Assembly (NCBI RefSeq): GCF_000009965.1
Contig: NC_006624.1
Location: 30,001 to 62,000 of the forward strand
Origin: Thermococcus kodakarensis KOD1
GTDB lineage: Archaea; Methanobacteriota_B; Thermococci; Thermococcales; Thermococcaceae
Reading direction: 5' to 3'
Length of the DNA stretch: 32,000 nt
A program made the position numbers and the translations under genes. The notes under the pieces were generated by a model. It ran no database searches. It saw only the letters and a program-made list of their open reading frames with translations, and was not told the origin of the DNA. This document shows, one piece after another, positions 12,696 to 16,435 of this stretch. Each line of letters begins with the position of its first letter. Position 1 is the first letter of the stretch.

Positions 12696-14444
12696 GTGAT
12701 GCAAATGCCCGAAGAGAAAGCCAGCGTCTTCACCAAGGCCGACCTAAGCATGGAGGCTTACCTTAAGGGCATTCTTCTGCCCTACCTTGGAATCTCAGCG
12801 GTGCTTTTCATAGTCATCGGATTTATAACGAGGATTCTTCCTGTTGCCCGGAGTCTCCAAGTTTTAATGTTCTTAATCCCGATAGTTCTGATAATCTACG
12901 CTGCTGCCTATCCGTACGTAGTGGCCGACTCCAAGAAGATTTCGATAAACTCGAAGATGCCGTACTTCATCACGTACTTTGCGGTTCTCTCCACGAGCGA
13001 GATGGGCAGAAGCGATCTTGTGGCAGTACTCGCCAAGGATCCAAAGCTGGGTGCAATAGCAAGTGAGCTGAAGAAAGTCCACACGATTGTTAACAAACTC
13101 CACCTCTCGATGCCGGAAGCATTCCGCTTTCTCGCCAGGAGAACCCCGAGCAAGATGTTCGCAGACTTTCTCGACAGGCTTGCCTACTCCCTTGACAGCG
13201 GTGTTGACCTGAAGGAATACCTCTTCCAGGAGCAGAAGACCGTTATGGACGACTATGAGACCTTCTACGAGGGAGCGCTTTATGATCTCGATGTTTTCAA
13301 GGAGATATACGAGTCGATCATCATTTCAGTCGTTTTCATAGCGTCGTTCATCATCATCGGTCCGATCATTACGGGAATGGACATAGGCAGGATGGGCCTC
13401 TACGCGCTCCTCATGATCATAGCGGCAGAAGTCGGTGTTCTGCTCGTCGTCAAGTTCAGGATGCCAGAAGACCCGATCTGGGCCGACAGCAGGGGAATAA
13501 GGGATCCCAAGAGGGAACGCATCAAAATGGCGGCGATTTACTCCAGTATTGGAACCGTTATCCTGACGTTGGTTTATCTCCTGTTTATCAGGCAGAGGTT
13601 CAGCATTCCCGAGCCGTTCGTGGTGGCCATGGTTCTTACCCCGTTCTACTACCTCGGAATGGTGGTCGACAGAGAGGAAAAGCGCATCTTCAGGAAGGAC
13701 GAGAACTTCCCGGCCTTCATCAGGAGCCTCAGCTCTTCCCTTGCCGCCAGCGGTGCATCCCTCGTCCTCGTTCTCAAGTACCTCAGCGCCCACGACTTTG
13801 GGTCACTCACGGACGACATCAAAGCTCTCTACAGGAGGCTCGCCATCAGGGTTGACAGGGACAGGGCTTGGGACTTCTTCATCGCCGGAACTGGAAGCTG
13901 GCTCATAGGAATATTCTCCGAGATATTCAGGGAGAGCCTGCACATGGGTGCCGAGCCAGATTACGTGGGTCTGGTCATAAGCAGGAACTTCGAGAGGATC
14001 GTTAGGCTCAGGAGGAAGAGGCAGCAGAGCATAGCGAGCTTTATAGGTATAATCTACGGTCTTACTGGAGCGTTTGCTTTTGCTCTCGCGGCGTCCTTTC
14101 AGGTGGCTGTTTCAATAAACGATCTGTTCTCGAAGATGGATCTCGGAGCTGCCGCGAACTACATTGGCGACATAATACACGTGATACCTCCGACTGGTAT
14201 GACTTTTCTGATGTACATAATGCTGACGATGATGGTTCTCCACTCATTGCTCTCGGCCCTGGTTATCAAGCTGGCCGATGGGGGGCACATACTAGGCTCC
14301 GCCAAATACTTCGTCATTCTGGCTTGGATATTCGCCGTCGGGATGTATCTCGGCCAGACCTTGATGGCGAGGATGATGGGCACGAGTAGCGGAGGTACAG
14401 AAGTTGCCCAACTTGTGGGGTATCTGCTGGGGGTGATGCCATGA
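12696..14444 (+). CDS. flaJ: Archaellum polytopic membrane platform protein FlaJ
   Basis: Multi-TM protein with two T2SS-F-like cytoplasmic domains, directly after flaI. The likely true start is ATG 12699 or 12705, behind GAGGTGAT (12694-12700). Confidence 0.9.
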   Translation: MMQMPEEKASVFTKADLSMEAYLKGILLPYLGISAVLFIVIGFITRILPVARSLQVLMFLIPIVLIIYAAAYPYVVADSKKISINSKMPYFITYFAVLSTSEMGRSDLVAVLAKDPKLGAIASELKKVHTIVNKLHLSMPEAFRFLARRTPSKMFADFLDRLAYSLDSGVDLKEYLFQEQKTVMDDYETFYEGALYDLDVFKEIYESIIISVVFIASFIIIGPIITGMDIGRMGLYALLMIIAAEVGVLLVVKFRMPEDPIWADSRGIRDPKRERIKMAAIYSSIGTVILTLVYLLFIRQRFSIPEPFVVAMVLTPFYYLGMVVDREEKRIFRKDENFPAFIRSLSSSLAASGASLVLVLKYLSAHDFGSLTDDIKALYRRLAIRVDRDRAWDFFIAGTGSWLIGIFSEIFRESLHMGAEPDYVGLVISRNFERIVRLRRKRQQSIASFIGIIYGLTGAFAFALAASFQVAVSINDLFSKMDLGAAANYIGDIIHVIPPTGMTFLMYIMLTMMVLHSLLSALVIKLADGGHILGSAKYFVILAWIFAVGMYLGQTLMARMMGTSSGGTEVAQLVGYLLGVMP

Positions 14445-16435
14445 AGAAGGTTCTTCTGTTTTTAACCCTCTTTTTCTTGGTTTCTACGAGCGTTCCAGTG
14501 AGTTCGCTGTCTGCCGAAGCCATGGTAAAGCTCCCCGGGTCTGTTACTGTTGATGGTATCAACTTGAGGTTTGGGGACCTCTCCATTGATGGCAAACTGA
14601 TGGTTGATGTCTACGTGGACGGCTCTCACTACAGATCACTGACTCTTTCGCCAGGTGAAAACGTATCCATAAATGACCTTAAATTTAAGTACGAGGGTGC
14701 GTACATTGGCTCTGAGTCTTTTGCGGTAATTAGCTTGCAGTACTCTTATTTGCTCGCTGGTGATAAGTTGGTTATCGGCGACTACCGCTTTAGGGTTTTG
14801 AGCGTCGATCAGAAGGGTTTTAAGATTAACGCGACTTATAAAGGGGAAAGCAAAATATTCACACAATCGAGTTTCAAGATAGGCCATCTCCAAGTAAAGG
14901 TCAATTCTACCCCGAATGTGTTTGACGGCATTCTAAATCCCGGCGAGAACGTTACGGTTGGGGATCATTACGTTAAGCTCGTTAAAATATGGGCATCAAA
15001 GTCCGGCGAGAAAGTAGTCTCGGGTGCGGTGTTTGAAATTGATGGAAACTCTTACACCCTTGAATCTGGAAAGTCCCAGACTGTAGGATCGTTTGTGGTG
15101 GATCTGAAGAGTGCCACCATAGTTGGAGAGCTGGGTGAGGAAGACTGCGACAACTGTAAGGGATACGCGGAGGTTTCCATTAATCTCCTGGCAGTTTCTA
15201 TAGATGCTGAGACTGTCCCGGATGCTCAGATAAAGCTCAGCCCCGGACAAACGGCTTCGGTTGGGCCTTACATTCTGAGATATGATTATCCACTGGGGGA
15301 CGCTGTCAAGGCGTCGCTCCTCAATAACTGTGGCCAGAAGTTGGCGGAGGGCCGCCTTAGATTGGGTGAGATATCCTATGTTCTGGCATATCCCGGTGCG
15401 ATAATAGGATTGGAGAGCATCTCTGACGAAAGTGCCGAATTCATTGTGTTCTTGGATCCAAGCGAGTTTCCAGATGTTACCAAGACTGCAAATCTCTTGA
15501 TGTCTCTTGAAGTTAAGGATACGAAAATTAAGCAGTACGTTCCATTTGACGTGGTGCTTAGGGTGAAAAACACGGGCAGTGTCGCTCTTAAGAATGCTCT
15601 CATAACTTTCGAGCCCTCAAAGGGCCTGAAGCTCGTTTCGGATAACACTGTTTCCATTGACTCGATCGCCCCGGGTAAAGAGGCAGCTTTTACGTTCAAA
15701 GTAGTTCCAATTCAAAATGGGACGGTTGAGCTCGGGAAGGCCTATGCAACAGTGCTGGCGCCCTTTGAGCTGGCTTGTGGTCAGTGTACTATCTTAACTT
15801 TCACGTCCAATACTGCAAACGTCACCGTTGAGCCTTCCACCATTAAGTACAATGTCTCTCCAACGGGCCCCGAAAGCGTTCCAGTGGGGACTCCTTTCAA
15901 CCTCTCCATTACCGTGGAGAACAAAGGTGACGTCAGCATCCCAGCGAATCTAAGCATAAGAATACCTCCTGGGGTTGGTGTTGAACTCTCCAAGGATATG
16001 GCACTGAAGGATGGTGCAGTTGTCGTTCCCCTGAGCCTCGGTCCTGGAGACAAAGAGACTCTTGTATTAGAATTGGTTCCATCATCTCCGGGTAACTACT
16101 CCATCACGGCGCTTGTTGAGACTCCCTACGGTGAATACTCACCAGTTAAGTTTTTCTTCACGGTTATCTCGTCAAAAACGACCGTGATAACAAAAACTGA
16201 ACATGTCACTGAGACTGTCTCCCCTGTTGAAACTTCTCAGGGCAATAAGACTACTGTAACTGCAACCATAACCAACGTAACCACAACTACTGAATACAAA
16301 ACAGAAACGACAACGTCCACGGTGGAAGTGCCTTACACGCCCCTTACCACAAAGCTCCTCTGGTTTGGGGTTGGTGTTGCCATCGGTGTTGGGGTGATCA
16401 TAGGAATTGCCTGGTACATGAGCAGGTCGTCATGA
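14441..16435 (+). CDS. Surface-anchored repeat protein (signal peptide, 4 x PG-motif modules, 2 x CARDB/DUF11-like Ig modules, Thr-rich stalk, C-terminal TM anchor), last cistron of the fla operon
   Basis: The ATG overlaps the flaJ stop (ATGA 14441-14444). Signal peptide is [22 protein letters not shown]. Ig-like modules include [24 protein letters not shown] and [21 protein letters not shown]. The TM anchor is [22 protein letters not shown]. Confidence 0.8.

Follow-up and report, generated by a model that had tools for sequence, protein, structure and literature searches.

What does the gene immediately behind flaJ, at the 3' end of the archaellum gene cluster of Thermococcus kodakarensis KOD1, encode, and does it belong to the archaellum? 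The question arises from a stretch of 32,000 nucleotides of contig NC_006624.1 (positions 30,001 to 62,000 of the forward strand; hereafter the window, whose own numbering is used unless genome coordinates are stated). Here five archaellin genes, then flaC, D, F, G, H, I and J, precede an open reading frame (ORF) of 664 codons at 14441-16435 (+), which corresponds to TK0050 (genome 44441..46435) and is annotated in KOD1 as a 'hypothetical membrane protein'. An annotation made from the DNA letters without database searches, the sequence-only reading, had proposed that this ORF is a surface-anchored protein and an unrecognised last cistron of the archaellum operon. Because the gene lies directly behind flaJ in nearly all of the Thermococcus, Pyrococcus and Palaeococcus relatives that we sampled, it is probably a lineage-specific accessory of the swimming apparatus, and we assign a probability of about 0.6 to the TK0050 family being an archaellum-associated accessory surface component of Thermococci.

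The junction between the two genes is compact. The upstream gene, flaJ (arlJ, TK0049; 12696..14444, +), encodes the archaellum membrane platform and matches the NCBIfam ArlJ/FlaJ equivalog NF004704 with 761.7 bits; published KOD1 tables place TK0049 at 42705..44444 and TK0050 at 44441..46435. The TK0050 ATG overlaps the flaJ TGA (14442-14444) as ATGA, exactly as had been read from the letters, and a strong Shine-Dalgarno-like element, GGGGGTGAT (14429..14437, +), ends 3 nt 5' of this ATG within the 3' end of flaJ. Similar elements (gggggtga/gaggtga) also precede the start codons of orthologs at other loci. On the basis of the ORF list, the sequence and the published coordinates, 14441..16435 (+) is therefore described here as a predicted type I membrane glycoprotein gene coupled to flaJ. 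An oligo-T terminator, TTTTTATTTTT (16439..16449, +), follows TK0050 as had been noted, and at pcm, the gene behind it, published read counts are ~3- to 5-fold lower. However, two T5 runs (14459-14463 and 14471-14475, +) occur in the signal-peptide codons, 19-35 nt inside TK0050, so that the TTTTTATTTTT T-tract is not, as had been supposed, the first one downstream of flaJ; the T5 runs may act as weak attenuation sites. A scan for sigma-70 promoters and hairpin terminators was set aside as not meaningful for an archaeon.

Comparison of the genes downstream of flaJ, which the sequence-only reading had put forward as a check, settles the matter: a coupled homolog occurs nearly throughout the Thermococci sampled, the T. 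profundus clade excepted. A FlaJ scan yielded 17 Thermococcus and Thermococcaceae metagenome-assembled genome (MAG) loci in which the contig runs past flaJ and the gene is present. Each carries a full-length homolog (24-35% identity) that starts -4, -1 or +1 nt from the flaJ stop and is preceded by a gggggtga-type element. Together with Pyrococcus furiosus DSM 3638, a P. abyssi-like contig, two Palaeococcus species, T. barophilus, T. celericrescens, T. peptonophilus and three deep Thermococci MAGs, these make up 27 places approached from flaJ; T. profundus and three MAGs lacking the gene are reported apart from them. A full-length ortholog (19-77% identity) begins between -4 and +5 nt from the flaJ stop in 27/27. 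The gap is +5 in P. furiosus and T. barophilus, +3 in the P. abyssi-like contig, and -4 in Palaeococcus ferrophilus, Palaeococcus pacificus, T. celericrescens and T. peptonophilus; it is likewise -4 in the three deep MAGs, whose FlaJ is just 48-51% identical.

The reverse approach, starting from the gene itself, gave the same picture: flaJ was directly upstream in 15/15 metagenome loci and 2/2 isolates. This metagenome scan used a sub-clade alignment, the whole-family alignment being short of conserved stretches. Thus, adjacency to and co-orientation with arl genes held in 27/27 and 17/17 places, respectively. When 1.84 billion representative sequences were searched exhaustively with a profile, only 21 clusters emerged at E<1e-30, whose full-length members span 610-672 aa, and 10 of these clusters map (>= 74% identity) directly onto flaJ-linked loci; weaker matches were confined to the immunoglobulin-like (Ig) region. 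Neither this search nor the gene-first loci revealed a homolog away from flaJ, aside from one partial relative on a plasmid. This sole relative in another context is a protein of a T. nautili plasmid (P0139, 890 aa, labelled 'exported protein of unknown function'); its similarity to TK0050 is limited to the part equivalent to residues 293-623, a module carried by a mobile element of Thermococcus as well. In Palaeococcus pacificus (L053:5704-8648), the ortholog is followed by cheF with a 4-nt overlap, and then by cheW and a methyl-accepting chemotaxis protein gene on the other strand; archaellum and chemotaxis clusters are thus connected there via the TK0050 ortholog.

Because orthologs sit at the exact same junction across Thermococci, the gene is ancestral there rather than a late insertion. 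The distribution implies a position at the flaJ junction that is ancestral to Thermococci, a single loss, and a family specific to this class. The sequence-only reading had also entertained a later insertion that hijacked the 3' end of the operon, having estimated ~37% GC for the gene against ~60% for flaD from single lines of sequence. TK0050 is indeed lower in GC, but the true contrast is 47.6% versus 50-58% for the fla genes, and the signal lies in the GC content of third codon positions (GC3; 0.52 versus 0.63-0.77, with flaJ at 0.68). Such a deficit relative to flaJ is peculiar to KOD1 (-0.17) and Palaeococcus ferrophilus (-0.14), which is the only composition evidence for recent or horizontal acquisition; in the other 25/27 loci GC3 lies within -0.07 to +0.01 of flaJ, and the deficit is no family trait. 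In addition, synonymous divergence (dS) from T. peptonophilus is ~1.0 for TK0050 and flaJ alike, and the ratio of nonsynonymous to synonymous divergence (dN/dS) is 0.14 for TK0050 versus 0.03 for flaI and flaJ. TK0050 is under purifying selection, fast-evolving and of the same age as flaJ. Since Thermococcus, Pyrococcus, Palaeococcus and deeper MAGs all have an ortholog in this place, a recent insertion at the operon end is contradicted, and we consider recent acquisition in any form highly improbable.

Published transcription data for KOD1 bear out the claim that no promoter separates the two genes. Jager et al. (2014) report no transcription start site (TSS) within TK0049 or before TK0050, the nearest upstream sense TSS being at genome position 42047, inside flaI. 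In the same data TK0050 read counts are similar to those of flaJ and ~3- to 5-fold higher than those at pcm; there is thus no fall from flaJ to TK0050 despite the T5 runs. In the histone mutants of Sanders et al. (2021), TK0050 was down 6.5- and 5.4-fold, alongside decreases of 5.9- to 8.1-fold for TK0047-49, although the operon is still defined there as TK0038-TK0049. In the arl cluster as listed by Grunberger et al. (2023), arlJ is followed by 'a hypothetical gene', and arlB0 is put forward as the starting point of every arl transcript.

Initiation also occurs inside the gene. Jager et al. (2014) list internal sense TSSs at genome positions 44714 and 44865 (window 14714 and 14865), and published differential RNA sequencing places three antisense TSSs in TK0050 at window positions 14794, 15480 and 16417 (-). 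AT-rich TATA-like stretches occur at 14678-14691 and 14834-14843, ~25-35 nt upstream of the internal sense TSSs. The internal TSSs and TATA-like stretches may be a by-product of the low GC content.

The protein architecture points to an exported, membrane-anchored ectodomain. Only two hydrophobic segments are present, at residues 2-25 and 635-660. The first accounts for a predicted Sec-type signal peptide (residues 1-22; 14506 marks the end of its coding segment, 14441..14506, +), modeled as a helix at residues 2-14 followed by a linker with a low predicted local distance difference test (pLDDT) score. A class III (prepilin) signal was rejected, as the N-terminus, MKKVLLF..., has no G/A after basic residues and there is no TIGR02537 match; an archaellin included as a control in the same NCBIfam search does match this model. 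The all-beta N-terminal ectodomain (residues 23-345; 14507..15475, +) holds an invariant cysteine, C297, and is modeled with pLDDT ~90. The repeated module described from the letters, L-x-[PS]-G-x-x-[VAQ]-[ST]-[VI]-[GN], occurs exactly at residues 69, 165, 207 and 266. A shuffled TK0050 gives 0.002 matches to this strict form, a motif that was defined post hoc. The looser form [LIV]-x-x-G-x5-[GND]-x-[YFWH]-x-h-x-h added a fifth hairpin copy at residue 104 (14645..15283, +, for all five). These positions are retained in the family consensus, and profile-profile comparison of N-terminal pieces (45-69% probability) gave weak support for repetition.

The two Ig modules that had been called CARDB/DUF11-like were recovered as well. 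Ig-like domain 1 (residues 346-465; 15476..15835, +) matches Pfam CARDB (PF07705) over residues 351-431 with 27.8 bits, above the gathering score of 22.7, and CARDB is matched in 12/21 family members. Ig-like domain 2 (residues 466-578; 15836..16174, +) falls below the Pfam CARDB threshold over residues 478-554; its homology to domain 1 is given by hhalign (96.8%), and it aligns over ~90 residues with the PDB entries 2kl6/3idu (E 5.5e-4). These CARDB structures resemble TK0050 over that span only and carry no functional information. They are titled 'Uncharacterized protein' and represent what we take to be PF1109 of P. furiosus. The disordered Thr-rich stalk (residues 579-634; 16175..16342, +), identified by composition, pLDDT and motif, contains 38% Thr over residues 577-636, and TK0050 as a whole has 12 N-x-S/T sequons where 4.7 +/- 1.9 are expected. 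The stalk ends in a juxtamembrane VPYTPLxxK motif (residues 626-634; 16316-16342), which is kept in orthologs just before the C-terminal transmembrane helix and short basic tail (16343..16435, +; supported by hydrophobicity, AlphaFold and family conservation). Hydrophobicity and composition therefore uphold the signal peptide, sequon-bearing stalk and C-terminal anchor of the sequence-only reading.

The layout of VPYTPL motif, helix and basic tail merely resembles CTERM sorting signals, and an archaeosortase-type signal (PGF-CTERM and relatives) was rejected, with 0 NCBIfam families matching at E<=0.1. No other segment of the family is as well conserved as the transmembrane helix (0.535, versus 0.37-0.44 for the rest), in which G649 and A657 are invariant and W658 is almost so. 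Such conservation is unusual for a mere anchor, and the combination of highest conservation with invariant small residues suggests packing against a partner helix.

Structure prediction was pursued with AlphaFold on the alignment of 21 sequences (mean pLDDT 83.2), replacing a three-sequence model (68.9). Residues 23-578 are modeled as all-beta with pLDDT ~90, residues 580-631 as disordered with pLDDT <50, and residues 635-663 as a helix. Foldseek searches against PDB and BFVD returned only generic multi-beta-domain matches, including integrin alpha, alpha-2-macroglobulins and phage tail proteins, with template modeling (TM) scores <= 0.25. The root-mean-square deviation was >= 15 A for each match listed and >23 A for the leading ones, and these matches are without functional meaning. 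Pfam matches in the 21 family members were confined to the Ig region, and a profile of residues 23-345 found only chance-level matches among PDB sequences. With no Pfam match and no PDB sequence match, the ~320-aa N-terminal region constitutes an undescribed domain or set of domains.

The gene has been encountered before, if not under a family name, and the cistron proposed as unrecognised is in this sense a conserved flaJ-linked gene that had already been examined in 2014 (as PF0329) and listed in 2023. PF0329 of P. furiosus is an ortholog with the same post-flaJ position and architecture (BLASTP 2e-53, 26% identity over the full length; hhalign 100%), differing in its 5-nt gap after flaJ in place of the overlap. 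NCBI names for family members are COG1361, COG1470 or hypothetical. In the literature we found no paper treating the gene as a family or giving it a role, and TK0050 was not found by locus tag or GI in the supplements of Makarova et al. (2016), of which the neighborhood table was covered in part.

Known systems offer partial parallels. A secreted Methanolobus protein (2016, Table S5) is likewise lineage-specific, archaellum-linked and built with DUF11/CARDB-type Ig domains; however, it belongs to another lineage and its archaellum link is called variable, in contrast to the near-invariant abutment of TK0050 on flaJ, and no homology to TK0050 was detectable in the Methanolobus flaJ loci that were fetched. 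The S-layer (surface layer)-binding periplasmic stator proteins ArlF/ArlG (FlaF/FlaG) are also envelope-side products of the same operon, with a similar proposed tie to the S-layer. Whereas these are universal, archaellin-like, N-terminally anchored proteins of ~150-170 aa, TK0050 has 664 aa, a C-terminal anchor, Ig and novel beta domains, and a distribution restricted to Thermococci. C-anchored archaeal S-layer glycoproteins, to which the COG1361 'S-layer domain' label refers, share the signal peptide, the beta-rich glycosylated ectodomain, the Thr-rich stalk and the C-terminal transmembrane helix. TK0050 differs from them in being expressed at the level of flaH-J, far under flagellin, and is therefore not a bulk S-layer protein. 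The very high expression expected of the main S-layer protein is absent: across the first three read-count columns of the published table, TK0050 has counts of 162-756 and flagellin TK0038 counts of 1,282-9,459. NCBIfam S-layer and sorting-signal models had no match in TK0050.

Taken together, the family probably supplies the last cistron in the block of archaellum accessory genes and is translated in step with FlaJ. Its product would be exported by Sec and kept in the membrane by the C-terminal helix, which may pack against a partner helix, most simply that of FlaJ or of its own copies. On a flexible, glycosylated stalk of ~55 residues, the Ig pair and the novel beta domain (~320 residues) would project into the ~34 nm that separate membrane from S-layer. 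Acting from the envelope side, the protein could guide or brace the filament base, link it to the S-layer, or make room in the S-layer. Cryo-electron tomography of P. furiosus has revealed unassigned membrane-proximal periplasmic densities in the ~34-nm pseudo-periplasm, and the S-layer opening for the 11-nm filament is unexplained. A more specific version of the accessory role, in which the family is a FlaJ-associated bushing or portal whose stalked ectodomain forms these densities and opens or replaces an S-layer subunit for passage and turning of the 11-nm filament, strikes us as unlikely; if true, it would have no counterpart among known Arl proteins.

Several observations weigh against an archaellum-associated role. 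T. profundus and three related MAGs lack the gene, with pcm 37-45 nt after flaJ and the flaD-J block otherwise intact; nothing usable was found in the literature on T. profundus motility. Nor was the gene found in Archaeoglobales or in 25 Methanolobus/Methanosarcinales flaJ loci, and it is thus not present wherever an archaellum is encoded. Given these absences from the T. profundus clade and from archaella outside Thermococci, the gene cannot be essential to the machine generally, and the intact operon kept by the T. profundus clade indicates an accessory rather than a core part. In P. furiosus, reverse transcription PCR by Nather-Schindler et al. (2014) detected no flaJ-PF0329 co-transcript, and PF0329 was excluded from the operon; in the same study flaJ was seen as a single-gene transcript only and the flaJ-flaI link was likewise not found. 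The two T5 runs just 3' of the TK0050 start could attenuate read-through, and neither fold nor sequence matches indicate a specific activity.

Two further explanations were weighed, of which the first is an adhesin co-expressed with archaella, that is, a surface binding protein made alongside the filaments and taking no part in the motor or in filament passage. The stalked Ig architecture, with its CARDB domains, Thr-rich stalk and abundance of sequons, would suit such a protein, as would the fast divergence (19-40% identity, versus 48-84% for FlaJ) expected of an exposed ligand-binding surface and the dispensability of the gene in the T. profundus clade. Moreover, P. furiosus archaella are described as organelles of adhesion and cell-cell contact (PMC4263178). 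An adhesin would, however, have no evident need for a class-wide overlap with the flaJ stop or for a conserved transmembrane helix. The family shows neither the paralog expansions nor the copies elsewhere that typify adhesins, and with a stalk of ~55 residues the ectodomain may not extend past the S-layer. On balance, we regard an adhesin as doubtful.

The same negative co-transcription result from P. furiosus would fit a passenger, namely an unrelated protein of the envelope or of S-layer type that plays no part in motility and simply benefits from read-through and ribosomes at the operon 3' end. So would the NCBI names, confined to COG1361, COG1470 or hypothetical, the retention of the operon in the one clade that lost the gene, and the internal sense and antisense TSSs within TK0050 in KOD1. 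A passenger is nevertheless improbable in view of the linkage in 27/27 flaJ-first and 17/17 gene-first places, the position of the gene between flaJ and cheF in Palaeococcus pacificus, the co-regulation of TK0050 with fla genes, and the purifying selection acting on it. The archaellum-associated accessory remains our preferred interpretation. Among Thermococcales, the archaellum has been imaged in situ in two species, T. kodakarensis and P. furiosus, and in both the holding or guiding of the filament between membrane and S-layer and the opening of the S-layer are unexplained; TK0050, hitherto hypothetical and outside the defined operon, would be a concrete and genetically tractable candidate for this gap. 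Should it have no role in motility, it would still be instructive, as a plain example of an unrelated gene that has kept its place at the end of an operon for as long as the class has existed.

Other features of the window and of related loci merit brief description. Downstream of TK0050 lie pcm, a HAD hydrolase gene and a 400-aa ORF on the other strand. The pcm gene (TK0051, protein-L-isoaspartate O-methyltransferase; 16470-17128) has an early stop at 16991 that leaves 173 aa, and its conserved C-terminus runs on in another frame to 17128, the shift falling at a G6 run around 16980. Related loci have intact orthologs of 216-222 aa, and the break could represent a frameshift, a pseudogene or a sequencing error. 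Among the five tandem archaellins, TK0039 (3291-5033) stands out with 580 aa, versus 219-275 aa for its paralogs, owing to a ~350-residue insertion that separates the conserved archaellin parts at its two termini; published data place two internal TSSs in this gene, at genome positions 34367 and 34560. The 400-aa ORF (17938-19140, -), ~1.5 kb downstream of the archaellum cluster, encodes a multi-pass membrane protein. The corresponding gene in T. peptonophilus and T. celericrescens matches Pfam Arc_PepC (PF06819) and is followed by that of a 55-aa class III signal peptide protein. In Pyrococcus, a cluster convergent with PF0329 (L048:8625-11707 and L049:8626-11710) encodes two DUF1102 proteins, an S24-like peptidase and small unknown proteins, and could be another surface-filament locus adjoining the archaellum cluster.

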